A stretch of DNA of 32,000 nucleotides, taken from positions 1,361,859-1,393,858 of the forward strand of contig CAVROB010000013.1 in NCBI GenBank assembly GCA_963722725.1, in the 5' to 3' direction. Below the pieces are notes generated by a model. The model made no database searches. It was not told where the DNA came from and worked only from the letters and a program-made list of their open reading frames with translations. The position numbers and the translations under genes are program-made. Shown here piece by piece: positions 2,878-27,774 of this stretch. The stretch comes from an uncultured Acidobacteriota bacterium (GTDB lineage Bacteria > Acidobacteriota > Terriglobia > Terriglobales > Acidobacteriaceae). Position 1 is the stretch's first letter. Every line of letters starts with the position of its first letter.

Positions 2878-4228
2878 ATGCCGATCTTGATCCTGGAAAA
2901 ACCAGAACCGTTGAGCGAAGCGTCGCGCGGACAGGCCAAGCCCATGCTCGTCGGTTCTGACGCAATGAGACTGCTAGCACATGAGTTGGGGCGTTACTGC
3001 AGACAGGAGGTAACTGGACGGTCATTTCTAATTGCCGGCCACCGAGGCTCGGGTAAGACAACTCTCGTACAGGGCGGGTTCCAGCAAGTCCTCGACCAAA
3101 TGGCAGCGGAAGACACGCGTGATCGAAGCTCGTTGCGACCACTACTGATTCTTTTGCAAGGTCCGAATCTTCTTCCCGGCCCGCCGGAATTAGAAGTGAC
3201 GGCAGCGGCTGCGACGAATGCCGTCGAGTGACGTTATCACTAGTGCCGGACCAAGTAGTGAAATGGAAAACGTTCTCATCCAAATCACCCTAGGCTTGTA
3301 TCGCTCGCTCGCCCGGGAGTTCACGCGTGCATTTCGCTTTGTAGCGACCAACGTACCAGTCGGGAGAGGGATCCATTTCCGCGTAACCGAGATGAATTGG
3401 CCGCGCAATTTGAACTCGAGCTAGATCAGTACCTGGCCCATGCGCTTGCGCGAATACTGGCGGTGTGGCGGCTTTCTACGACAGGGGTGCTCTTCCCGAT
3501 GGAATTTCTTCCTTTTCCAAACATCGGGGGGGGGCGACCTTGGGAGTTTTAAGGGGTTCTCGACCTTTTGATCAAGGCCTTCGAGAATTGGTTGCGCTTT
3601 CTTCCGCATGCGAAGTCTATAAGCGGATATGTGGGACGATCAGTCGAAGGGAAGAGAACAAGGCGGGTAAGGAAGATAAAGCTGAGGCTCAAGTTGCTAT
3701 AGATGCTAAAGGGTCGGATCTAATGAAGCCGTGATCGCCCTCCTCACCGGCGGTTTGGCGGGAACCGGAGTGCTCGCGGCCAATCCCTCTGCGTATGCCA
3801 CAGCGGCCCTTGCCGGCCTTCTTGGGGCCTGACGACGTCGGTCGTATTAAAACGTTCCATCTCGTGGTCGCGTCAGCGGTCAGTGAGTCGGGAGGATCTA
3901 TCGTTCCGAACCTATCCGTCGCAACGCTGGACCGGGTCCTTCCGGTACTTATTGAACGTATTCGCCTGGCAGGTCTAGCACCCGTGTTTGTTGTCGACGA
4001 GCTAGACAAAGTGGTCGGACTCCCCAACGGATCACCGAGATGGTGCGCCGGCTCAAGAAGTTCGTTGCCGAGAATGCCTTCTTCTGTTTCTTGACCGATC
4101 GACTTTACTCGAGGAGATGCGTGAACGGACGGCAAATGCACCTTACCCGATCGAGTACACTTACTTTACAATCAAGTCTTTGTGGCCTCAAACATCAGGA
4201 CTTGCACCAATACTCGGCGAGTGACTGA
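2878..4228 (+). pseudogene. P-loop NTPase (AAA/KAP-like) disrupted by multiple frameshifts and stops; decay probably continues to about 5800
   Basis: Walker A (AGHRGSGKTTL) lies in ORF 2878..3231. Walker B (PVFVVDELDKV) lies in ORF 3795..4094, in a different frame. Protein-like segments hop between frames (1>2>1>3>2>3>2). A TM-like stretch (VIALLTGGLAGTGVLAANPSAYATAALAGLLGA, about 3725..3830) sits between the two Walker motifs. One frame change coincides with a G9 run at 3526..3534. Confidence 0.6.
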
Positions 4229-6603
4229 ACCTCCACAGCCGAGTCCGCCAAAGAAGGTGTGGGGGTCGAGCAGTTAGTCGCTGATCGGGAAGCATACGAA
4301 TACTCGGCCGATTACCCGGTATTGCCTTACATTCTTTTGCATGCTCCCAGATGCACCCGATCGACCTGCACCGCCAGTTGGCAGCTGTCCGGAACTCCAT
4401 GGGTCAGGTGTCTTTGGAGCCGGCGCGGTTCGAAGCAGGCCCCGCTACCGTTCCGAGCTGATGATTCAGGTGGCGATCGAAATTGTGCTCGAGGAAGAGG
4501 ACATGCAGGCAGAATTGGATCGGCAACCTGCATTTCTCCGGCTGGCGCACACGCAATGTACTACATTTCACGGCGCTGGGCCGAGCGCCCGAACGCCTCG
4601 TTCTGGAGGCGGAAGGCATAGCGGATTTGACGCTATCTTTCCGGCCGAATGACGACTGACACTCCGCCTAAGGAATCCCAGCAAAGAAGCAGGGAAGTAG
4701 ACAAAGATCAACAATCAGCTACCTATATGCAAGCCCCGGCGACCCATTTCCATGAGGCACCACCACAAGTCGAACCGGCACAGCGGAAATTTTTGATGGA
4801 TTGCGTGCGTGAACTGGCCGCCCTGCTGGCTTCACCGGTGACGCTCCGAGAACGCGCAAAGGCCAAAGGGCCCCAAGTGGTGCTCGACGCATTGCCGAGC
4901 GATCCCACGTACCGGGAAGGTAAGGAGCGACCGAGGCGGTACAGTCGGACGCCGAGAACGAAGGTGCGAAGAGAAGCGCCAAACAGGCCCGGAGACGGAC
5001 GGAAGGAGAGGCTGACCACGACGAGGAGACACTTGCCGAGCTTACGCGTGGTTCAATCGAACCTAGCACCCTCTCCAGCCAACGGAATTATCGGCACGAC
5101 CCCGGCTTGGGCGGATGTGAAGCGGGCCCTGGCCCGTCTCGCACCGCTCAAACCAGCAGTGTGGCCTACCTGAGCAGGACGCTGATGTCGTGGTGCTCAA
5201 CGACTGGCGCTCTGCTGAAACGCAGTGGCGATAATATCGCGCTCGCTCTCGTGTGGGGAGGTGATCGGAAAGTGGAAACGGGAGCAGCAAAGTGTCCTGC
5301 GAGGCCTCAAGGTTATCTCGGACGCTTTCTGGCTCAGAGATATGTCGGAGACCAGGTTAGGTCGATACCCTGGATTCGCCGAACAAATCAGCATCAGATC
5401 AAAAGCAGACGTGAAGGACCCGCCGGCACTGTCCTCAACACAGAATCTCGCTGTCTGGGCCGAGTGGGTTACGCACGTCCAAAGCAGCGTACCCTTAAGA
5501 TCGATCAACGGGAGGATATCCTCGAGAGTCCCAGCGGGAATCTTGGCGCTCCTGGTATACGCGATTGCAGAGCCTGCGGCACAGCAGGGTAGGCCAGATC
5601 TTAGCGACATAATCTGCATGGCGGCCCGTGCTGGACCTGCCCAGTATCTGAACTTTGACTCACTCCATGACACTAGGGAATGGAGCGAAGTATTATCGGC
5701 CGTTATTCTGGAAAAACCTGAGACCCGAGCTACGCCCCTCCGTGGCTCTTCCTCGCTGCGTTGCAACAGCTCGGCTTTACGCATCAAGTACTCACGTGGG
5801 TAGACGCCTCTCCAGTCGTCAGGTCGCGAATATGGCGGTAACGGAAGTCTGATGAAGAATCCGCGACTGTAGTGAAGGAAAGCACCTCTAAAACAGAGGG
5901 GCGTCGGCCCTCTACCTGAGTCAGCAATCGGCAGGCCTGTTAGCGCGGCGGCCGTCCCAGCGCACGCGCGATAGACTGGGAGTGACCAGTCGCGAGAGGT
6001 CGAGGTCTGGAAGCCGACGAGATACGGCTACCGTCTGGCCTGGACACTCCCGAGATGCCTGTGGAACGGACGGCCGAGAAGCGGGACCGATGTCCGATCT
6101 GATACGAGATGCAAGTTCAAACCTCTGGACCGCAAGACCAGAGAATCGCTTCTTCAATCCGAGCCCAAGCGCAAATACCTTAATACTGGAACTCCGAGCT
6201 TACATGCCGCACGAAACGCCATCACTGCAAGAGTCTGAGGTCTCTTCTAAGGCGGGGTCTCAACCACTGTAGTCCGTCCCAAGAGGTGTAACACTCCCGT
6301 CGTATAGCCTACCCTCGATCTGCATTGCAACCAACTGACGCGACCCTAGACTGACACGCTGGTAAGGGGGGATCTGCGTAGGGGTTACAGCGTTCTGAAA
6401 GGGCCACCCGCAGTAACACCTAACCTCACCGCCCCCAAAGACTGGGAGCGCGACCCAACGGATTTGCTACTCATCCCGTTACTCAATGAGCCAAACGTGG
6501 CCGAAAGAGCCGCGTTGCGGCCAACGGGACCGCTCAAAATAAAGGGTTGACGACCGGAAACAGGGAAAGATTTCGAGACCTGGGTCCCCTGCTAAGTTGC
6601 CCG

Positions 6604-7125
6604 TTAGGTTTCCCGCGTATCGACGGCCTCTCCTTTTTCCACGAAAGCCTGCAGCCAGCCGAGAACACGAATCCATCCCTGATAATGATCGGCCGCCGCT
6701 TTTGGAGCACCGGCAAATCCTTCGTGACGAACCCTCACCATCGTGCCCGTTCCAACCTTTTGTGGACCGCGATGCTGCAGGCCATGAATCTGCTGCGGCT
6801 CGAGCTCCCAACGCACGATGGTCTTCAGCGGGCCGCTCCAACTCGCAATCCAGGTGTGAACCAATAGGCGTGGCGGATCAATCTCCAAATATTCGCCGTC
6901 CACGCGAAACGAAGTGCCGTCCTCGCGCACGCCGACGCTCGAATATTTTCCGCCCACGCGAAAATCAGCTTTCCGTTCCGTAATGCGATACATGCCTCTC
7001 TGGCCCCACCACTGTGAAGTCTCGGCGGGATCGGTCATCGCCTGGAAGACTCGTTCCGGTGGCGCAGCAATGAAGATTTCCGCGGTCACCATATCTTGAT
7101 CGGAAGTGATTGCATTTGTAGCCAT
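6604..7125 (-). CDS. SRPBCC superfamily protein (AHSA1/Aha1-like domain)
   Basis: 173 aa. The N-terminus (ITSDQDMVTAEIFIAAPPERVFQAMTDPAETSQWWG) and the motifs PPRLLVHTW and RWELEP are shared with the two downstream paralogs. Confidence 0.85.
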   Translation of the reverse strand: MATNAITSDQDMVTAEIFIAAPPERVFQAMTDPAETSQWWGQRGMYRITERKADFRVGGKYSSVGVREDGTSFRVDGEYLEIDPPRLLVHTWIASWSGPLKTIVRWELEPQQIHGLQHRGPQKVGTGTMVRVRHEGFAGAPKAAADHYQGWIRVLGWLQAFVEKGEAVDTRET

Positions 7126-7136
7126 GAAGCCTCCTT

Positions 7137-7610
7137 TTATTTCTCAACAAATTGTTTGAGCAGCTTGACCACGCCCGGCCAGCCGCCGCTGTAATCCTTG
7201 CGGGCAACCGGTTCCTGCGCCAGACCGCTGTGGGTAACTTTGACGTGCGTGCCGTCGTTGGTCGGCGTCAGCTCCCAGCGCACTACGGTTCTTAGGCTCT
7301 TGTCATCGTGCCAATTTGAAATCCAGGTGTAGGCCAGCAGTCGCGGGGGATCGAATTCAAGCACTTCACCCTGGCAACAAGACTGGTTTACACCTTTGAA
7401 ATTCAACTTGGTCTTCCTTGTTCCGAAGCGCCATTGGCCTCCGGGGCGGGCATCCATTTCGAAGAATTCCGTCTGGCACTCTTCACTATTCCACCAACGA
7501 ATGACCTGTTGAGGATCAGTGATCGCTTGAAATACTCGCTCCGGCGGTGCTGAGATATGAATCTCGCTAACAATCGCATCCTGATCGGGAGTAACTAATG
7601 TTGTAGCCAT
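7137..7610 (-). CDS. SRPBCC superfamily protein (AHSA1-like), paralog 2
   Basis: 157 aa with VTPDQDAIVSEIHISAPPERVFQAITDPQQVIRWW, PPRLLAYTW, VVRWELTP and VKVTHSGL. It starts 11 nt from the neighbouring paralog. Confidence 0.9.
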   Translation of the reverse strand: MATTLVTPDQDAIVSEIHISAPPERVFQAITDPQQVIRWWNSEECQTEFFEMDARPGGQWRFGTRKTKLNFKGVNQSCCQGEVLEFDPPRLLAYTWISNWHDDKSLRTVVRWELTPTNDGTHVKVTHSGLAQEPVARKDYSGGWPGVVKLLKQFVEK

Positions 7611-7625
7611 CGTGTTTGCTCCTCA

Positions 7626-8105
7626 CTATTTTTCCAGATACTTCTTGATCGTTTCGATTAGACCACCCCAACCCTGACTGTATGCCGCACGCGACACGGG
7701 TAGTTGCGCAAGACCGCTATGGGTCACCTTGAGCCGCGTCCCCGCCGGAATTGGCGTGAGCTCCCATCGCACCACCGTTTTGTGCGACGGAATTTCGTGA
7801 AAGTTGGCCAACCACGTGTGGACCAGCAGCCGTGGCGGATCGATTTCAAGGACTTCGCCGCGATGCTCGAATTGGCGCGGTTTGCCATCCGGGTTCTTAC
7901 CGCTTTTTTCGCGCGAGATGAATTCCCACTTTCCTCCGGGGCGCGCATCCATTTCCCAGACGGTGATCTCGTGGGTTTCGCCGGAGCCCCACTTCAGAGC
8001 CTCATTGCGATCGACGAGGGCCCGGAAGACGCGTTCCGGGGGAACGGCAATCTCGATTTCGCTGACAACGGCATCCTGATCGGGCGTGATTCGTGTTGTA
8101 GCCAC
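7626..8105 (-). CDS. SRPBCC superfamily protein (AHSA1-like), paralog 3
   Basis: 159 aa with ITPDQDAVVSEIEIAVPPERVFRALVDRNEALKW, PPRLLVHTW, VVRWELTP and LKVTHSGLAQ. Confidence 0.9.
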   Translation of the reverse strand: MATTRITPDQDAVVSEIEIAVPPERVFRALVDRNEALKWGSGETHEITVWEMDARPGGKWEFISREKSGKNPDGKPRQFEHRGEVLEIDPPRLLVHTWLANFHEIPSHKTVVRWELTPIPAGTRLKVTHSGLAQLPVSRAAYSQGWGGLIETIKKYLEK

Positions 8106-8145
8106 TGGCTTCTCCTTGCTTGAATTCGTTGCCTGTTCTGCAAAT

Positions 8146-8178
8146 GCGGTTCGCCAGGAAGCCTTCCTTGCGAACCGC
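8146..8178 (-). terminator. GC-rich stem-loop between the secreted-protein gene and the SRPBCC triplet (terminator or attenuator candidate)
   Basis: GCGGTTCGC...GCGAACCGC is a perfect 9-bp inverted repeat with further pairing in the spacer. It starts 5 nt downstream of the 8183 stop. The minus-strand tail ATTTGCAG is only weakly U-rich. Confidence 0.35.
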
Positions 8179-8182
8179 GATT

Positions 8183-8668
8183 CTATTTGCGCGTCAGGTC
8201 AAAGACCTGCTTCATCTGCTTGCCGTGGTCGATAAAATTCCACTCCTCGATATGGTGGTCGGGCCCGAGCATCGCGATCACCACATGATCCATGTGCCCC
8301 GACTGCGGACTCTCGAGATTGGTGGCATCGACAAAGTTGAAGGTGATGGTTTTACCATCCGGCGAAGCGCTGGCCTGCATTCGAGGCTGGTTTCCGACGC
8401 CGCAATAATGAGTAAGGAGCAGACGATTCGGTCCGTCGAAGTTAATCATGGAGATCATGTTTTCGCCATGACCCACGATTTCGCTCATCAACGCGGATCC
8501 TCCCGCGGTCATTCGATAAGTAACCTCGACCGGCTCGCCTTGAGAGCTTTTTCCTTCCCAGGAACCGGCGAGCGATTTCAGTTGGTCGAATGACTTCTGC
8601 GCGTCCGACTGGGCGAAAACAGCGGTTGTGAACAACAAGATACAAGCTGCAATGCGAAGCGTCTTCAT
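8183..8668 (-). CDS. secreted protein, DUF1579-like beta-barrel (by eye)
   Basis: 161 aa with a signal peptide (MKTLRIAACILLFTTAVFAQS). LAGSWEGK...THYC...NQPRM is the pattern I associate with DUF1579-type proteins that co-occur with ArsR/SRPBCC genes. Confidence 0.7.
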   Translation of the reverse strand: MKTLRIAACILLFTTAVFAQSDAQKSFDQLKSLAGSWEGKSSQGEPVEVTYRMTAGGSALMSEIVGHGENMISMINFDGPNRLLLTHYCGVGNQPRMQASASPDGKTITFNFVDATNLESPQSGHMDHVVIAMLGPDHHIEEWNFIDHGKQMKQVFDLTRK

Positions 8669-8671
8669 TTT

Positions 8672-9055
8672 TCATTTCTCCTTTGTCATTTTTTGTTTTG
8701 CCCGTTCGTGGGCGGTTTCCTTTGCGTATTCAGCCTCGACAAAAGTCTTTAAGTTGACCAGACTCGTCTGCCAGAAGACACGATATTGTTCCAACCAGGC
8801 GTCAACTGCCTTTAGCGGCCCCGGGTTGAGCTGATAGAGTCGGTGGCGGCCTTCCCGTCTTTCCTGCACCAGATGCGCCCGGCGCAACAGTCGCAGATGT
8901 TTCGAGATGGCCGGCCGCGACACCGGAAAAACCCGCGCAATCTCCCCCGCCGGCTGAATGCCCTTCCGCAGAAGATCAAGCACCGCTCTTCTGGTCGGAT
9001 CGGCTAAAACCTGAAAAGTCGCTTCCGTGGAATATGTAACCGATCGGTTCCGCAT
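8672..9055 (-). CDS. ArsR/SmtB-family transcriptional regulator
   Basis: 127 aa with LADPTRRAVLDLLRKG...AGEIARVFPVSRPAISKHLRLLRRAHLV, a winged-HTH signature. Confidence 0.9.
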   Translation of the reverse strand: MRNRSVTYSTEATFQVLADPTRRAVLDLLRKGIQPAGEIARVFPVSRPAISKHLRLLRRAHLVQERREGRHRLYQLNPGPLKAVDAWLEQYRVFWQTSLVNLKTFVEAEYAKETAHERAKQKMTKEK

Positions 9056-9076
9056 AATGTGTAACTGTACGGTTAC
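9036..9076. promoter_or_regulatory. two GTAAC-N6-GTTNC inverted-repeat sites (candidate ArsR operators)
   Basis: GTAACCGATCGGTTC lies at 9036..9050 (core AACCGATCGGTT is a perfect palindrome). GTAACTGTACGGTTAC lies at 9061..9076. The two sites straddle the start codon of the minus-strand ArsR gene at 9055. Confidence 0.4.
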
Positions 9077-9198
9077 GCGATAGGGTTGTCAAGAGAAAAG
9101 TTTTGATGGATTTTTTCCAAGCCGAGTTCCCTCTCCAGCGGGCAATGAAACTTTCGGGGTTGACAGGGAGCGTCAACTCTCGTTACATTACTTATCTG

Positions 9199-9208
9199 GT
9201 TATATAAC
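9199..9208. promoter_or_regulatory. perfect palindrome GTTATATAAC 9 nt upstream of the plus-strand ArsR start
   Basis: Read directly from the sequence. It is flanked by further GTTAC/GTTAT half-sites (cGTTACatta...acgGTTATgc). Confidence 0.35.
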
Positions 9209-9216
9209 TGACGGTT

Positions 9217-9585
9217 ATGCATAAACTTGACGCCACTTTCGCCGCGCTGGCCGACCCAACGCGGCGAGCCATTTTGGCTCGCTTAGCCAAGGGCGAGGCC
9301 TCGGTAACGGACTTGGCGCACCCCTTCGCAATGAGCCAGCCCGCGATTTCCAAGCACCTTAAGGTTCTGGAACGCGCGGGACTGATTTCACGCGGACGCG
9401 ATGCGCAACGCCGTCCGCGGCGACTGGAAGCCCGACCCCTGCGCGACGCTACGCACTGGCTCGAAAACTACCGCCAGTTCTGGGAGGCGCAGTTCCGGCG
9501 CCTGGACGACCTACTGCATGACCTGCAAACCGGCGACCCCAAGATTAAGAACAACAAGATCAACAAAAAGAAGAATGCCCGTTAA
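9217..9585 (+). CDS. ArsR/SmtB-family transcriptional regulator
   Basis: 122 aa with LADPTRRAILARLAKGEASVTDLAHPFAMSQPAISKHLKVLERAGLI. Confidence 0.9.
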   Translation: MHKLDATFAALADPTRRAILARLAKGEASVTDLAHPFAMSQPAISKHLKVLERAGLISRGRDAQRRPRRLEARPLRDATHWLENYRQFWEAQFRRLDDLLHDLQTGDPKIKNNKINKKKNAR

Positions 9586-9598
9586 AAGGAGATCAGAA

Positions 9599-10105
9599 AT
9601 GAAAAACAGCAAAACATTCAACATTACGGCGCACAGTGAGCGCGAGATTGTAGTAACTCGTGTCTTCGACGCACCGCGCCGGCTGGTATTCGACGCTTAC
9701 ACTAAGCCGGAATTAATAAAGAGGTGGTTGCTTGGACCGGACGGATGGTCAATGCCGATCTGCGAGATCGACTTGAGGGCGGGCGGCAAATATCGCTACG
9801 TCTGGAGGAATGAAACTGACGGGCATGAGATGGGGATGGGTGGCGTCTATCGCGAAGTCGTCCCGGCGGAACGAATTGTGGTGACGGAGATCTTCGACGA
9901 GGCGTGGTATCCGGGCGAGGCGGTGGACACGATTGTCCTGGTCGAGCAGAAAGGCCAGACCACCCTTACGCAGACGATTCTATATAACTCCCGTGAGACG
10001 CGCGATGCTGTGCTGAAGTCGCCGATGCAGACCGGCATGGCTGCGAGTTACGACCGGCTGGAGAAGTTCTTGCCTTCGCTCGGGCGCGAGGCATTGAGCG
10101 CGTAA
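9599..10105 (+). CDS. SRPBCC superfamily protein (AHSA1-like), paralog 4
   Basis: The ATG at 9599 is preceded by AAAAGGAG. The protein reads MKNSKTFNITAHSEREIVVTRVFDAPRRLVFDAYTKPELIKRW.... The track ORF from 9401 overlaps the ArsR gene and is taken to be an artefactual 5' extension. Confidence 0.9.
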   Translation: MKNSKTFNITAHSEREIVVTRVFDAPRRLVFDAYTKPELIKRWLLGPDGWSMPICEIDLRAGGKYRYVWRNETDGHEMGMGGVYREVVPAERIVVTEIFDEAWYPGEAVDTIVLVEQKGQTTLTQTILYNSRETRDAVLKSPMQTGMAASYDRLEKFLPSLGREALSA

Positions 10106-10199
10106 GTGTGGCGCCGGCAGAAAATCCCCGCCCAAGCGAAGCTTGAGCGGGGCAGCCTCAAGAGCAAAAGCTGGAGTAACTGCGGGCCCAGAACGAACT

Positions 10200-10781
10200 C
10201 TAACTCTGAGCGCGGACCAGGTTCAGAAAGAATTCATGCACGCGGGTGTCTTCGCTGAGCTCGGGATGGAAGGTCGCAGCCATGACACTTCCCTGCCGGA
10301 CTGCTACGGGATCGTTGCCTTCGGTGGCGATGACTTCGACTCCGCGTCCGACGCGTTCGATTTTAGGGGCGCGGATGAAGACCATTTCGATCGGTGAGTT
10401 GCTTGGTTTGCCTCGCTCATCGATAAAGCGGCCTTCGCGGATGGAGCTATCAATCTGGCGTCCGTAGGCGTTGCGGCGGATGCGGATATCGAGCGCGCCC
10501 AGTCCTGACTGCTTAGGGTTCTCCACTTCATTGGCCAGCAGGATTGCGCCCGCGCAGGTGCCGAAGGTCGGCTTTACATGAACGAACTGCTTCAGCTTTT
10601 CGAACCCCGCTTCGCCGAGCAGTTTGAGAAACGTGCCTGATTCGCCTCCGGGAATTATCAGGCCGTCGATCTCGTCCAGTTGCTCAGGCTTTTTGACGAG
10701 CACAACTTCAGCCCCCAGCTCTTCGAGCCGGCGGCGGTGCGCGTCGAAATCGCCCTGTAAGGCCAGAACACCGATTTTCAT
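10200..10781 (-). CDS. pdxT: pyridoxal 5'-phosphate synthase glutaminase subunit PdxT
   Basis: MKIGVLALQGDF...GLIIPGGEST-like (GGESGT), GTCAG catalytic Cys, FHPEL. The start is taken at MKIGVL (10781) rather than the track start at 10856. Confidence 0.9.
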   Translation of the reverse strand: MKIGVLALQGDFDAHRRRLEELGAEVVLVKKPEQLDEIDGLIIPGGESGTFLKLLGEAGFEKLKQFVHVKPTFGTCAGAILLANEVENPKQSGLGALDIRIRRNAYGRQIDSSIREGRFIDERGKPSNSPIEMVFIRAPKIERVGRGVEVIATEGNDPVAVRQGSVMAATFHPELSEDTRVHEFFLNLVRAQS

Positions 10782-10855: not shown

Positions 10856-10952
10856 TTTCAGTATCTGGTTAGTAATCGTCGATGTCAAGTTACTTGAGGA
10901 GATTATCTCTGCGTTTTCTCCTCCATGAACTTCTCCACCACAACGGGGAGAA

Positions 10953-11024
10953 TGGACCCGGCGGGAGTCGAACCCGCATCTGCGACTTGGACAGAGTGCT
11001 GTGTTCCCCTTACACCACGGGCCC
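10953..11024 (-). tRNA. tRNA-like gene, 72 nt, no encoded CCA; a canonical 7-nt loop gives anticodon GUC (Asp) but the isotype is uncertain
   Basis: Sequence: GGGCCCGTGGTGTAAGGGGAACACAGCACTCTGTCCAAGTCGCAGATGCGGGTTCGACTCCCGCCGGGTCCA. The acceptor (with G3:U70), D arm and T arm (GCGGG-TTCGACT-CCCGC) fold canonically. The anticodon stem forms only 3 of 5 pairs. Confidence 0.7.
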
Positions 11025-11148
11025 TGAGAGAGCTTGGTCCGCGCCGCCGGAAATGACAAGGTCACAGGTCACGATCCCGTTCGGTGCGTGCCGAATTGGG
11101 ACAAGCGATGCGGCGTCGGCGACGCAGAGACCCGACCGCAGAATCGGT

Positions 11149-12093
11149 CTAAGCCCTCGCGAGGATCTCATTAGCTATGGAGTGGATAAGCTGGTTATCG
11201 TGAGATGTCGAAGCTGCGCCCATCGACCTGAAAAACGTGAACAGCTCCTTCTCGCCTTGTCTCGTGGCAAGGAACAGGGCGAGTTGGTAGATACAGACTC
11301 CTTTATCAGCGTTTGTAGAGCTCGGAGCGTTTGGCCAAACCTCAGTGCTACACCTCTTCATGAACTCGGGTATTGCTCTGCGATACGTCAAGAGAGCACT
11401 GCGAAGGTCCTGCAGCTTCTTTATTCCGGCAAGGTTGACCAGCCTTGATCGCGTTTCCAATGCCGCGTCATTCAGCGGTGCGTCTAATGAGAGGCCGAGG
11501 GCTGATGCCACGACGTTATCCAGTTCGCCGACAATCGGCTCCTGCTCGATGAAGGTTCTTAATGACACGGCGTCAACCGGGATGTCGGGAACTCCGGCCT
11601 CCACTTGGAGCGCAAGCGGTCGCTCATATTGCGCTTTGCTTTTGCGGATATCTACAAACTCGCGGCCTGCCAGTTCGAAGAGGGCCGCTATGATTGAAAA
11701 GCGCCTCTTAACTTCATCCGGATAGGCGTCTCTAAGATCGTACCACTCGTGCTCAATCTCAGACCATGCGTGTCCCAAAATGGAGGTAATCTGAATCTCG
11801 CACCTGATGCCCGCGAACTGTTTGTATTCGACGTCAAGGATTCTCTTCTCCAAATGGCTACAGACGTAGTTGATTGCTCGATAGCCAAAGCGGTCGGGCT
11901 CGGTGTTTCGTTTGTCCACCGATTCTTTTCGGTCAATGTTAAACTCCCGTTCCAGCGCCTCCGCAACCGCGTCTACCTCATCTTCGTAGTATGTGATTAC
12001 GCGAAGGCCGGCTAGATCGGTAATGTCATCTAGCTCCTGGTAGTTCTTAGTGGGGTCGAGGTACTTTTTTTCAAGCTTAGTCGTTCCCTTCAC
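11149..12093 (-). CDS. RelA/SpoT-homologue (RSH) nucleotide pyrophosphokinase, small stand-alone synthetase type with ~150-aa C-terminal extension; true 5' end lies upstream (about 12260-12270)
   Basis: Synthetase-domain motifs are present: LAGLRVITYYEDEV, DRFGYRAINYVCS and EIQITSILGHAWSEIEHEWYDLR. The in-frame upstream peptide ...CRAILADFSRREPTLTYFCARTKSLIEAILHEANLRYQSVQARVKG looks like the family's usual N-terminal helix. It has no ATG/GTG/TTG start. Confidence 0.85.
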   Translation of the reverse strand: MKGTTKLEKKYLDPTKNYQELDDITDLAGLRVITYYEDEVDAVAEALEREFNIDRKESVDKRNTEPDRFGYRAINYVCSHLEKRILDVEYKQFAGIRCEIQITSILGHAWSEIEHEWYDLRDAYPDEVKRRFSIIAALFELAGREFVDIRKSKAQYERPLALQVEAGVPDIPVDAVSLRTFIEQEPIVGELDNVVASALGLSLDAPLNDAALETRSRLVNLAGIKKLQDLRSALLTYRRAIPEFMKRCSTEVWPNAPSSTNADKGVCIYQLALFLATRQGEKELFTFFRSMGAASTSHDNQLIHSIANEILARA

Positions 12094-12273
12094 CCGCGCC
12101 TGAACGGACTGATACCTTAGGTTTGCTTCGTGTAGGATAGCCTCGATCAGGCTCTTGGTTCTTGCGCAAAAGTATGTGAGGGTGGGCTCCCGACGGCTGA
12201 AGTCCGCAAGAATGGCTCGACACTCGCTTTGGACGCGCCGGGACTCTTGGGATCCGCCATCTTGTTGATATTT

Positions 12274-12621
12274 TCAGAATCGCTTGGTCAGTTTCACCCC
12301 GAACTTGAGCAACGGCATTTCGAGCGGGTAGCCCTGCCCAATCGCCTGACCATCGGACGTCAGTTCTCCAGTTAGCTCCAGCGTGAGATCCTTTCTTGTC
12401 GTTCGAAAGACGCTTTCCGCACCGTCTATGAATGGCGACACTCGAAGGGTGGCGCTGAAGCTTTTTCCATTTACCTTGAAGTTCCCCTTATAGAGGTAGG
12501 CGTTGTCTCCCCCTAAAATCCGCCCGCCTTGGAAAACCACGACGCCACCACCAGACACGCCAACGCTGCTGCCGAATTCCGCAGTCCATAGCCCATCAAG
12601 TTGTTTTGTCGTTTCCGACAT
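12274..12621 (-). CDS. GrlR-like small beta-barrel protein
   Basis: 115 aa. DGLWTAEFGSSVGVSGGGVVVFQGGRILGGDNAYLYKGNFKVNG... follows the pattern DG-[IL]-[YW]..F....G.G[IV]....G....GGD..Y.Y.G that I recall for GrlR-family proteins. It starts 23 nt after the pdxS stop. Confidence 0.65.
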   Translation of the reverse strand: MSETTKQLDGLWTAEFGSSVGVSGGGVVVFQGGRILGGDNAYLYKGNFKVNGKSFSATLRVSPFIDGAESVFRTTRKDLTLELTGELTSDGQAIGQGYPLEMPLLKFGVKLTKRF

Positions 12622-12644: not shown

Positions 12645-13565
12645 CTACCAGCCCCTGGTTTGCAGCATGTGGGCTTCGTCCAGCGCGGCTATCGCCAGGC
12701 CTTTCATGGCTCCGACCAGGTCTTCGCTGACTTCAAGCAATACTTTCGGATCTTTATAGTGCGTGGCGGCTTGCACGATTGCTTTGGCGCGCTTCGCCGC
12801 TTCCTCGGGATTGGCGAAGGTAGTGGAATCCTGCATGAAGATGCCGGAGCCGACGAAGACGGATTCTGCGCCGAGTTGCATGACCAGCGATGCGTCGGCG
12901 GGAGTAGCGATGCCGCCAGCAGAAAAATTCGGCACTGGCAGCTTCCCTTCTTTGGCGACGAGTCGCACTAATTCATACGGAGCTCCGTGCTCTTTGGCTT
13001 TGGCGTACAGTTCTTCTTCGCCAAGGACGGTCAGGATCTTTATTTCTTGCACGATCTGGCGCATGTGTTTCACGGCGTGGACAACGTCGCCGGTGCCGGC
13101 TTCGCCCTTGGTGCGAATCATGGCTGCGCCCTCGGCGATGCGACGCAAGGCTTCTCCGAGGTTGCGGGCGCCGCAGACGAACGGAACCGTGAAGGCGTGT
13201 TTGTCGACGTGGTGGGCTTCGTCGGCGGGAGTAAGTACTTCCGATTCGTCGATGTAGTCGACGCCCAGTTCCTGGAGGATTTGAGCTTCGGCGAAGTGGC
13301 CGATGCGGCACTTGGCCATCACCGGGATGGAGACGGCGGCCATGATTTCGCGAATCTTTTTGGGCGAGGCCATGCGCGCTACTCCGCCTTCGGCGCGGAT
13401 TTGCGCCGGAACACGCTCAAGAGCCATTACCGCGACCGCGCCGGCCTTCTCGGCAATTACGGCTTGCGCGGCGTTGGTGACGTCCATGATGACGCCGCCT
13501 TTTAGCATTTCGGCCAGGCCCGTTTTCAGGCGCAGGCTGGTGGATCTTCCGTTGTTGTTCGACAT
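12645..13565 (-). CDS. pdxS: pyridoxal 5'-phosphate synthase lyase subunit PdxS
   Basis: 306 aa with [36 protein letters not shown]-like (GHFAEAQ), [37 protein letters not shown] and ...LQTRGW at the C-terminus. Confidence 0.97.
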
Positions 13566-13875: not shown

Positions 13876-15360
13876 ATGGCGAAGAAATCGAGCACGCTGC
13901 CGCTGAACCTTAAAGGGCCGAAGGCTCGCGTGCCTCTGTATCGCTGGCTCTACGAGGAATTGCGCTCGGCGATTCTTGCCGGACGTTTGCATCCGGGCGC
14001 TCGCTTGCCGGCTACGCGCGATCTGGCTTCGCAATACGGAATCTCTCGTCCAACGATTGTGACCGCCTTCGAGCAGTTGCGCTCGGAAGGTTATGTGGAA
14101 GGTAAAGTGGGATCGGGAACGTATGTCAGCAAAACTCTTCCCGATGAGTTGTTGCAGGCACCGCGTACGAAATCAGTGGAAGGGACGCGGCGGCGCGCCA
14201 TCCCGCTTTCTGCCTATGCTCGACGGTTGCAGCCGCTGCTTCGTCGCGAGCCTGGTCCGGCGCGGGCATTTCGCGCCAGCCAGCCTGCGCTCGATGCTTT
14301 TCCGATGAGCCTCTGGGCGCAGGTGGCAACGCGACGTTTGCGGCGAGTCTCAGCGCGTCTGCTGACTGGTGGAGAGGCACTGGGGTATCGGCCGTTGCGC
14401 GAAGCGGTCGCCGAATATCTGAATACGTCTCGCGGTGTGAAGTGCACGGCGGAGCAGGTACTGATCATCTCTGGCGTGCAGCAGGCTCTGGACCGGGCGG
14501 CACACTTGTTGCTCAACCCGGGCGATCCGGTGTGGATGGAGGAACCGGGATATCCTGGCGCTGCGGTCGTGTTCCGAGCGGTTGGAGCGAAAATCTGTGC
14601 CGTGCCCGTCGATTCTGAGGGTTTGAATCTTGAGGCCGGGCGGCGACGATGGCCGCGGCAACGTCCTCGGCTGGTTTATGTAACTCCGGCCCACCAATTT
14701 CCTCTTGGCGTGACCATGAGTTTGCGGCGGAGATTGTCTCTGCTCGAGTGGGCGCGGCGATCGAGGACCATCATCTTCGAAGACGACTACGACAGCGAAT
14801 ACCGCTATTCCGGGCGTCCGATTCCCGCGTTGCAAGGTTTGGACCGGGCGGCCGTGGTGATATTCGCGGGCAGCTTCACGGACGTTCTTTTTCCTGCGCT
14901 ACGACTCGCGTATCTCGTGGTTCCATCCGACATGGTGGACATTTTTGCCGCGGCTGAGTCGGTGAGCACGCATCATCCGCCGCTGATCGATCAGGCGATT
15001 TTGTGCGATTTCATCCGCGAAGGGCACTTTGCGCGGCATGTCCGGCGCATGCGCGAATTGTATGCTGAGCGTTTATCCCTGCTGGTGCAGTCCGCCCGGG
15101 AACGGCTTGGCGGATTGCTGGAGATTCCTCCCGTGGAAGCCGGCTTGCGAACTGTCGGCTGGTTGCAAGGCGGACGGTCTGCGGAGCGCGCCGCACAGGC
15201 TGCGGCGAAACACGACGTCGAAGTTGTTCCGTTGAGCCGATATGCATGGGGTCGCGCGAGACGCGATGGGTTGGTGCTTGGCTTTGCGGCCGTGGACGGG
15301 CGCGAAATCCGGCGAGGAGTCGAGCAGTTGGCGCGGGCACTGGAGAAGTGTCGAGTTTGA
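13876..15360 (+). CDS. pdxR: MocR/GntR-family regulator with aminotransferase-like domain; PdxR by synteny
   Basis: 494 aa with an N-terminal GntR wHTH (LPATRDLASQYGISRPTIVTAFEQLRSEGYV) and a fold-type-I aminotransferase-like C-domain. It is divergent from pdxS. Confidence 0.85.
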   Translation: MAKKSSTLPLNLKGPKARVPLYRWLYEELRSAILAGRLHPGARLPATRDLASQYGISRPTIVTAFEQLRSEGYVEGKVGSGTYVSKTLPDELLQAPRTKSVEGTRRRAIPLSAYARRLQPLLRREPGPARAFRASQPALDAFPMSLWAQVATRRLRRVSARLLTGGEALGYRPLREAVAEYLNTSRGVKCTAEQVLIISGVQQALDRAAHLLLNPGDPVWMEEPGYPGAAVVFRAVGAKICAVPVDSEGLNLEAGRRRWPRQRPRLVYVTPAHQFPLGVTMSLRRRLSLLEWARRSRTIIFEDDYDSEYRYSGRPIPALQGLDRAAVVIFAGSFTDVLFPALRLAYLVVPSDMVDIFAAAESVSTHHPPLIDQAILCDFIREGHFARHVRRMRELYAERLSLLVQSARERLGGLLEIPPVEAGLRTVGWLQGGRSAERAAQAAAKHDVEVVPLSRYAWGRARRDGLVLGFAAVDGREIRRGVEQLARALEKCRV

Positions 15361-27392: not shown

Positions 27393-27774
27393 GGGGGCGT
27401 CACGGCTTCGACGGAGATGCTTGCGGCCAAGAGGCATGCCGGGGTGCACACACCCGTAATCGTGGGCAAAATGATAATTGCCAATCAACAAATGGCATAC
27501 GCAGCCTAATTAATTAGGCAGCCGCTTTCCACCGCTTCGCCCTTGGGCGGTGAGCGAGCGTCACACAGAGGGCTGCTCTTCCCGGTTACGTCTGGGCCGG
27601 GAGGCTAAGATCTCAGGCTAGCGGCTAGCGTTTCTTGTCCGTTCTGAGCGTGGGCCGCGAACGTCTTGGGTAGGGTGGAAACGCCTAATGCCCGGGGCAT
27701 GAACCGGAATAAGCATGTAGTCTCTTGACCAGTAACATTTTCGGACGCGGGTTCGACTCCCGCCGCCTCCACCA
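27393..27774 (+). ncRNA. ssrA: tmRNA (ssrA), 382 nt with encoded CCA; predicted tag ANQQMAYAA (27480..27509)
   Basis: The 5' end is GGGGGCGTCACGGCTTCGACGG. The 3' end is GGACGCGGGTTCGACTCCCGCCGCCTCCACCA, with the acceptor pairing to the 5' end including G3:U. The internal ORF is GCC AAT CAA CAA ATG GCA TAC GCA GCC TAA. Confidence 0.9.

Follow-up and report, generated by a model that had tools for sequence, protein, structure and literature searches.

A GrlR-fold barrel protein and a RelA/SpoT homologue form a recurrent two-gene unit in Acidobacteriota

Introduction

Toxic small alarmone synthetase (toxSAS) modules such as FaRel2/ATfaRel2, PhRel2/PanA, FaRel and unfused CapRel couple a stand-alone RelA/SpoT homologue (RSH) to a small cognate protein in a tight bicistron (PMC7229694). 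The antitoxins described for them fall into the classes pZFD/PAD1/D27, Tis1-like, SAH and Panacea (PMC11782079, PMC10440598), and certain toxSAS enzymes are reported to pyrophosphorylate the 3' ends of tRNAs, which they select via the acceptor stem (PMC11559606). Here, we analyse a 32,000-nt stretch of the genome of an uncultured Acidobacteriaceae bacterium (contig CAVROB010000013.1), hereafter called the window, in which the genes for a 115-aa β-barrel protein with a GrlR-like fold and for an RSH pyrophosphokinase lie between pdxS and pdxT, the genes for the two subunits of pyridoxal 5'-phosphate (PLP) synthase. Like the toxSAS modules, this locus combines a stand-alone RSH with a small partner in a tight bicistron, the unit occurs in varied genomic contexts, and relatives are carried by prophages. 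Unlike in these modules, the partner is a GrlR-type β-barrel, which lies outside the described toxSAS antitoxin classes (PMC11782079, PMC10440598), as the sequence-only reading of the window had supposed, and is absent from PADLOC-DB. Furthermore, the RSH is nearer to RelQ/RelP than to any solved toxSAS and carries a unique C-terminal domain, and its toxicity is only putative. We regard it as an even call whether the pair is a toxin-antitoxin (TA)-like or defence-like module whose RSH is held in check by the barrel protein.

In its overall build, the RSH recalls CapRel(SJ46) (PDB 7ztb; PMC9712102): both are polypeptides of ~370 aa with an N-terminal RSH part and a C-terminal non-catalytic domain, both have lone prophage genes among their relatives, and in both the C-terminal part evolves fast. 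The two differ in the C-terminal domain, which is all-alpha here and shows no pseudo-zinc-finger match (TMq 0.32-0.36 and rmsd 13-21 Å against 7ztb/9erv), and in that a second gene, for a partner protein, is required by the acidobacterial RSHs or at any rate always retained with them. The analogy to CapRel-type fused sensors that had been drawn from the sequence did not hold up, as 7ztb reaches only E 0.2 against the Escherichia coli relative of the RSH and a TM-score of 0.32 by fold. Among the fold matches of the RSH, CapRel comes only at rank 41 with poor superposition, the sequence similarity is negligible, and the E. coli relative is not a CapRel protein.

In enterohaemorrhagic and enteropathogenic E. 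coli, grlR is located directly upstream of grlA, and GrlR sequesters GrlA. The acidobacterial protein shares with this GrlR from the enterocyte-effacement locus (LEE; PDB 2ovs, 4kt5) the barrel fold of ~115 aa and a weak similarity over the GGD..Y.G region, and the gene of the putative inhibitor is likewise placed directly upstream of the gene of its presumed target. In contrast to GrlR-GrlA, the downstream gene encodes an RSH enzyme and not a helix-turn-helix (HTH) activator, there is no type III secretion system or LEE context, and the hosts are Acidobacteriota.

For the RSH, residues ~1-205 are best matched by RelQ/RelP (PDB 5dec, 2be3, 6ewz), with which it shares the conserved motifs RVK, D(x)GLR, GY and EIQ. 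It departs from RelQ/RelP by the extra 150-aa C-terminal domain, by a near-constant partner gene in Acidobacteriota, by homologues that are accessory genes of prophages and by EIQIT in place of EIQIR in the acidobacterial clade. The PADLOC candidate PDC-S33 resembles it in the synthetase region, its relatives from E. coli and IMG/VR belong to the phage protein family phrog_9640, and neither family includes a GrlR-like partner. The pair is thus a two-gene module of a known kind, built on an RSH, in which the fold of the partner is new, and its function is putative. A literature search yielded nothing that links GrlR-like proteins with RSH, and nothing on PDC-S33 or on the RSH gene of P2 prophages. 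To our knowledge, the stringent-response biology of the Acidobacteriota is almost unstudied.

The barrel and RSH genes form a conserved unit

The barrel gene and the RSH gene are a real two-gene unit. Their adjacency had been noticed in this one genome, and it recurs strongly in dozens of independent loci beyond it, so that a lack of recurrence can no longer be held against the proposed module. In a scan of 185,579 species-representative genomes, which was restricted to exact peptide patterns, the barrel gene lies directly upstream of the RSH gene in 10 of 11 acidobacterial loci, these ten being the ones with upstream sequence and a detectable match. A metagenome scan seeded with the barrel protein returned 49 full-length homologues, and the RSH gene comes next in all 47 that have downstream sequence. 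The spacing is tight, with typically 7-21 nt from the barrel stop to the RSH start (13 nt to the RSH ATG in the window) and with overlapping genes in some loci. Besides, pairwise identity among the barrel proteins correlates with that among their RSHs (r = 0.69, 37 distinct pairs), which is in line with a joint divergence of both partners.

At the level of the databases, the barrel family comprises 410 matches and the RSH family 362. In every locus examined, the gene downstream of a main-family barrel member encodes an RSH, and a GrlA-type HTH activator was never found in this position. A search seeded with divergent barrel proteins revealed no new partner types, the best 120 of 410 matches all belonging to the main family. 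The unit is spread over the classes of the Acidobacteriota, and its identity drops as taxonomic distance grows.

The GrlR-fold barrel protein

That the small protein is GrlR-like, as first suggested from its sequence, is supported by both its fold and a profile comparison. The AlphaFold2 model of the 115-aa protein is an eight-stranded β-barrel (pLDDT 93), and the best three matches of a Foldseek search against the PDB are all GrlR chains (4kt5_A/B, 2ovs_A; E 1e-6 to 8e-6, TM-score 0.72-0.79, 21-22% identity). A profile built from 31 barrel homologues matched GrlR alone among the PDB sequences (E 0.006). The link to GrlR is drawn from these profile and fold searches only, since direct Pfam, NCBIfam and PADLOC searches with the window protein gave no match. 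Of the 31 barrel proteins, 10 match the Pfam family GrlR (PF16518) below threshold (best E 0.0022), and the window protein has no PF16518 match at E <= 10. Barrel proteins are also absent from PADLOC-DB and match no antitoxin in PADLOC or Pfam. We propose that the barrel protein partners the RSH as an inhibitor, an antitoxin or a sensor.

The RSH and its C-terminal domain

For the enzyme, the RSH assignment is secured by RelA_SpoT (PF04607; E 1e-13, 51.9 bits versus a cutoff of 27), which is the sole Pfam match; no HD hydrolase, TGS or ACT domain was found, and the score for TIGR00691 (spoT_relA) is 13 versus a cutoff of 499. Residues R56, K58, D82, R87, Y127, E155 and Q157 are invariant among 45 RSH homologues and align with the RelQ motifs, including the ATP-binding RVK, the Mg-binding Asp, the G-loop Tyr and the Glu of EIQ. 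Because these catalytic residues do not vary, the family looks catalytically competent. In the AlphaFold2 model (pLDDT 86), the part up to residue ~205 superimposes on RelQ/RelP with a TMt of 0.75-0.78, and the family profile run against the PDB sequences retrieves RelQ/RelP only (best 2be3, E 8e-12). The 2011 RSH nomenclature table contains no acidobacterial small alarmone synthetase (SAS) group that matches this RSH.

The C-terminal ~150 aa, which are all-alpha in the predicted model, have no Pfam match at E <= 10 and no fold match in the PDB or BFVD. In a phmmer search of 1.84 billion representatives, this domain was found only at residues ~217-366 of ~370-aa proteins, or in fragments. Its mean pairwise identity is 40%, compared with 64% for the synthetase domain and 63% for the barrel protein. 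A fast divergence relative to the catalytic part is typical of sensor or specificity domains.

Prophage relatives of the RSH and TIR-linked paralogues of the barrel

Relatives of the complete RSH are also carried by viruses. Full-length relatives of 350-375 aa that include the C-terminal domain (30-36% identity, with profile E values as low as 1e-86) were found in 51 IMG/VR viral contigs, where they are lone genes, most of them antisense to phage structural genes. In L108, the gene is located between baseplate and tail-completion genes, and in L112 between the small terminase gene and an HNH gene. The L108 type is an E. coli P2-like prophage whose baseplate J protein is 99.7% identical to its counterpart in phage Wphi, and a search of 5426 complete E. 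coli genomes found the RSH relative in 14. One of these loci, in E. coli S88 (L138, NC_011742.1 2184402-2185481), encodes the ~360-aa protein WP_001280130.1, which is annotated as 'GTP pyrophosphokinase' and lies antisense between the genes for baseplate gpV and tail-completion gpS. The E. coli P2-like prophage loci with an RSH relative also include L093, L105, L107-L110 and L122. The relatives from E. coli and IMG/VR are full-length members of phrog_9640 (1e-201), a family without assigned function. In addition, the synthetase part matches PDC-S33 (1e-11 to 3e-19), and this match is partial: in the acidobacterial proteins, it spans only positions ~64-175 of a profile with 349.

The barrel protein, in turn, has distant GrlR-like paralogues (29-40% identity to the window protein), several of which are encoded close to TIR proteins. 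For paralogue P0184, a TIR_2 protein is encoded next, with the paralogue 10 nt upstream of it, and P0182 is found at the same distance upstream of a match to PADLOC TIR-TM (1.6e-59; L137 456-1601). In L077 (1493-2944) and L078 (914-2365), a paralogue is located ~115 nt upstream of a protein with a match to a PADLOC TIR effector (4e-18). A further paralogue, P0185 (L136), comes after a trypsin-like protease with PEGA domains.

These relatives allow a broader and more tentative idea, to which we give clearly less than even weight: GrlR-fold barrels may be a general, hitherto overlooked inhibitor or sensor class for diverse conflict effectors (an RSH here, a TIR NADase-type effector in the paralogous pairs), and the ~370-aa RSH family with its fast-evolving C-terminal domain, including the genes of E. 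coli P2-like prophages, may then represent a new toxSAS lineage that is separate from CapRel and acts against phages or by abortive infection.

The unit in the gap between pdxS and pdxT

In the window, the unit is embedded in the following arrangement (coordinates are positions within the 32,000 nt, and the genes of the cassette are on the minus strand):

13876..15360, plus strand: divergent MocR-type regulator with GntR HTH and aminotransferase fold (Pfam GntR 2.6e-17, Aminotran_1_2 5.4e-18)
12645..13565, minus strand: pdxS, PLP synthase subunit, 306 aa (Pfam SOR_SNZ 2.6e-106, 354 bits)
12274..12621, minus strand: small GrlR-fold open reading frame (ORF), 115 aa (ORF call)
11149..12260, minus strand: RSH pyrophosphokinase gene, 370 aa once repaired (RelA_SpoT, PF04607, 1e-13)
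12216..12218, minus strand: site of the 1-nt deletion in the RSH gene, GA[A]G (comparison with L024 and P0001)
11152..11610, minus strand: C-terminal ~150-aa all-alpha domain of the RSH (predicted model; family-specific)
10953..11024, minus strand: atypical tRNA-like gene, anticodon GTC (ARAGORN tRNA-Asp; Rfam tRNA 46.9 bits)
10860..10888, minus strand: sigma-70-like promoter match TTGACA-17-GATACT, 10/12, upstream of pdxT (promoter scan)
10200..10781, minus strand: pdxT, glutaminase subunit of PLP synthase (Pfam SNO 2.7e-52, 178 bits)
10152..10126, minus strand: strong terminator-like hairpin after pdxT (terminator scan)

Pfam, ARAGORN and Rfam agree with the sequence-only reading on the minus-strand order of pdxS, the 115-aa ORF, the RSH gene, the tRNA-like gene and pdxT, and the gaps that it gave are correct (23 nt between pdxS and the small ORF, 124 nt between the RSH and tRNA-like genes, 171 nt between the tRNA-like gene and pdxT). 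Its divergent MocR-type gene beside pdxS is likewise confirmed by the GntR and Aminotran_1_2 matches, and from its sequence this regulator is likely PdxR. Adjacency is the usual arrangement of pdxS and pdxT. Here, the SOR_SNZ and SNO proteins are encoded on one strand, but the two genes are not direct neighbours: as had been claimed, the cassette splits them, with 1863 nt in between that hold the small ORF, the RSH gene and the tRNA-like gene. The GC content of the cassette is 0.51-0.55 versus 0.57-0.63 in the flanks. A terminator scan found no terminator-like site between pdxS and the cassette on the minus strand. Promoter matches across the region are no more numerous than expected from shuffled sequence, and therefore the match at 10860..10888 is only a hint of a separate pdxT promoter.

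The placement between pdxS and pdxT was found in relatives as well, restricted to one Acidobacteriaceae subclade, and elsewhere the unit occupies other contexts. The order pdxS, barrel gene, RSH gene is present in L001-L004, L025, L028, L029, L035, L042, L067-69 and L074. In other contexts, the pair is located between arginase and RNase J/FtsK genes, or between 2-oxoglutarate-oxygenase and aminotransferase genes and near a RES-Xre TA system. The space between the RSH gene and pdxT ranges from just 110 nt in L028 to 4.8 kb of assorted genes in L001 and >8 kb in L025. In L002, from an Acidobacteriaceae metagenome-assembled genome (MAG), a ParD-like/ParE pair sits in this space (7215-7864; ParE_toxin 4e-10, 4-nt overlap), which indicates that the pdxS-pdxT gap gathers small modules. 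Taken together, the varied contexts, the variable space between RSH and pdxT and the low GC of the cassette suggest that the pair is accessory cargo in a module-accumulating gap. In L023 (5197-8958; 88% nucleotide identity over the RSH), a 5'-truncated and 3'-frameshifted RSH remnant is found beside pdxT, with neither a barrel gene nor pdxS, and a TacA/GNAT acetyltransferase TA system and an HTH gene are located just upstream of this remnant.

Toxin-like module or tuned alarmone synthetase

The reading as a TA-like or defence-like module draws on several lines of evidence: i) the recurrent tight pairing and co-divergence of both genes in unrelated contexts, together with the variable gap and the low GC, ii) the GrlR fold, the invariant catalytic residues and the fast-evolving C-terminal domain and iii) the prophage-borne RSH relatives, the resemblance to PDC-S33 and the TIR-paired barrel paralogues. 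In such a module, the barrel and RSH genes would be co-translated from one transcript, and the barrel protein would bind the RSH and keep it inactive, as GrlR does with GrlA. The enzyme would be freed when the barrel protein is lost or displaced, or when the C-terminal domain senses a signal. It could then use ATP as a pyrophosphate donor and modify a purine nucleotide at its 3'-OH or a tRNA at its CCA end, and this transfer would stop growth. The unit would have landed between pdxS and pdxT in one Acidobacteriaceae subclade, where transcription from the pdxS promoter probably continues into it, and the tRNA-like gene would be a separate, lineage-specific insertion.

A number of observations weigh against a toxin-like role or would fit the main alternative, which we consider rather unlikely, namely a regulated housekeeping SAS that makes (p)ppGpp without being toxic, with the barrel protein as a tuning subunit and possibly a lipocalin-like ligand binder. 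The non-toxic RelQ/RelP are the nearest matches of the synthetase domain in both sequence and fold, and the RSH family profile matched none of the validated toxSAS in the PDB at E <= 1. The unit is widespread over the acidobacterial classes with an identity that tracks taxonomy, and it is mostly found amid housekeeping genes and not in recognisable defence islands. Linkage to pdxS is kept across pdxS identities of 69-93%, which is a long retention for a TA module, and the 23-nt junction between pdxS and the barrel gene is preserved in several genomes. If the alternative applied, the placement in the pdxS operon would tie alarmone synthesis to PLP or nitrogen status in this subclade. Besides, the partner is not always there: the RSH of L008 is apparently intact with no barrel gene within 620 nt, Bacteroidota and prophage relatives of the RSH are without any partner gene, and GrlR-like genes were found neither in the viral contigs nor beside the phage RSH copies.

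However, a housekeeping enzyme does not readily account for a genomic position that varies by lineage, with the linkage to pdxS confined to one subclade, nor for relatives that are prophage accessory genes, for barrel paralogues paired with TIR effectors or for the fast-evolving C-terminal domain. The frequent pseudogenised copies and the seemingly patchy spread, with 11 acidobacterial loci from the 185,579 species genomes in the exact-peptide-pattern scan, point in the same direction.

In L014, L051, L059, L006, L011 and the window, the RSH is disrupted and the barrel gene intact. We considered this pattern as evidence for a toxin and rejected it, since its excess is not significant given the gene lengths: the RSH gene is 3.3x longer than the barrel gene, and several of the assemblies are error-prone long-read MAGs.

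If the pair is a TA or defence module, the GrlR barrel would be a new antitoxin or sensor fold among RSH toxins, and one that is tied to TIR effectors too. A tractable relative would already exist in E. coli P2-like prophages (S88, WP_001280130.1), and a core cofactor operon, pdxST, would be able to host such modules stably across an acidobacterial subclade. If it is instead an alarmone synthetase under regulation, a regulatory subunit of its own with a barrel fold would be a first for an SAS.

Reading frame of the RSH gene in the window

The RSH gene of the window is present as had been described, with its ATG at 12260 and not at about 12270, but the intact ORF of ~374 aa that had been assumed is not there, because the gene is frameshifted. 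The frame from the ATG ends after 37 codons (12260..12147), and the remainder of the RSH is encoded in another frame. As a consequence, the longest in-frame RSH ORF, with a GTG start at 12093 and a length of 314 aa, has lost the N-terminal helix as well as the Arg that is invariant in the RVK motif. One base added at GTCG^AGCC (12216-12218) restores a 370-aa protein that is identical to the metagenome protein P0001 in 366 of 370 positions, and apart from this site the RSH of the window has no other lesion. At this site, the window reads GTCGAGCC and the near-identical contig L024 reads GTCGAAGCC, and MADPKSPGASKASVE-AILAEF is read uninterrupted in the 98%-identical P0001 and in ten other homologues.

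Elsewhere in the window, a comparison with L024 revealed 157 single-base deletions between positions 4423 and 7000 and almost no substitutions, and these deletions break a large P-loop ATPase gene into pieces. This part of the window looks like a locally poor long-read consensus, and in view of such dense errors the deletion in the RSH gene is plausibly an assembly artefact as well. At the same time, at least 12 neighbouring genes of the window have full-length ORFs. We lean slightly towards an artefact rather than a biological deletion. The fragments of the P-loop NTPase are mainly on the plus strand (2878-3231, 3795-4094, 4649-5173, 5225-5803); the protein has a Walker A motif GHRGSGKTT and a Walker B motif VVDELDK, is at least 898 aa long in L024 and has no Pfam or PADLOC match.

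A biological deletion would turn the cassette of the window into a decaying relic, with the RSH as a true pseudogene and at most the small ORF still functional. We see this as possible and as somewhat doubtful. It would explain the broken frame at 12216-12218 and the leftover ORF that misses its N-terminal helix and the RVK Arg, and it is in line with disrupted RSH genes in other genomes, including the isolate L014 and the short-read metagenome contigs L051 and L059, as well as with L023, which retains just the 5'-truncated remnant beside pdxT. Against it stand the proneness of this assembly to deletion errors, with the 157 losses relative to L024 in 4423-7000 and the broken ATPase gene, the otherwise lesion-free RSH with its 366/370 identity to an intact homologue, and the in-frame sequence of both L024 and P0001 at the deletion site. 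In L014 (Granulicella rosea DSM 18704), the RSH is split into two frames in the G-loop region (5995-7088), and the barrel gene upstream of it (5641-5973) is intact; this RSH is likely a genuine pseudogene.

The tRNA-like gene

The tRNA-like gene downstream of the RSH folds into a genuine cloverleaf with a GUC anticodon (ARAGORN; Rfam 46.9 bits) and has several oddities, namely a C that bulges out of the anticodon stem, C37, A38, a G3:U70 pair, A73 as discriminator and no encoded CCA. The identity elements of the aspartyl-tRNA synthetase (AspRS) include G73 and C38, and G3:U70 is the determinant of the alanyl-tRNA synthetase (AlaRS). By these rules, the gene is without the AspRS elements G73 and C38 and has the AlaRS-type G3:U70 together with A73; position 37 is not a purine and the anticodon stem is not the regular one of 5 bp, as both would be in a canonical tRNA-Asp. 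The gene may encode a pseudo-tRNA, an RNA that accepts Ala but does not decode, or a tRNA that mistranslates.

The sequence-only reading had raised the possibility that this tRNA is a substrate or decoy of the module. In a three-part system of this kind, the RSH would modify tRNA, and the atypical tRNA would serve it as substrate, decoy or antidote. This would agree with the atypical features of the tRNA, with its identical sequence in the sister contig L024 and with the reported tRNA 3'-end pyrophosphorylation by some toxSAS, which choose their tRNAs by the acceptor stem (PMC11559606). However, no other related locus has this tRNA, not even that of the 88%-similar L028: no tRNA was found at 14 related genome loci, and the sequence occurs in none of the 136 other loci analysed, nor in the viral contigs. 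In L028, the nearest species whose locus is intact, only 110 nt lie between the RSH gene and pdxT, and an intergenic alignment of the window with L028 is uninformative on the tRNA-like gene. Since the gene is lineage-specific, it is not part of the conserved unit, which everywhere consists of two genes, and we regard a three-part system as highly improbable.

Other features of the window

Beside pdxT, the region 6604..10105 contains four tandem AHSA1/SRPBCC-family genes (173, 157, 159 and 161 aa), a fifth AHSA1-family gene at 9401..10105 on the plus strand and two ArsR/HTH_5-type regulators; the AHSA1 and ArsR family names are taken from the Pfam labels of the equivalent L024 genes. A tmRNA gene is located at 27393..27774 on the plus strand (Rfam 178.8 bits), with the tag peptide ANQQMAYAA.

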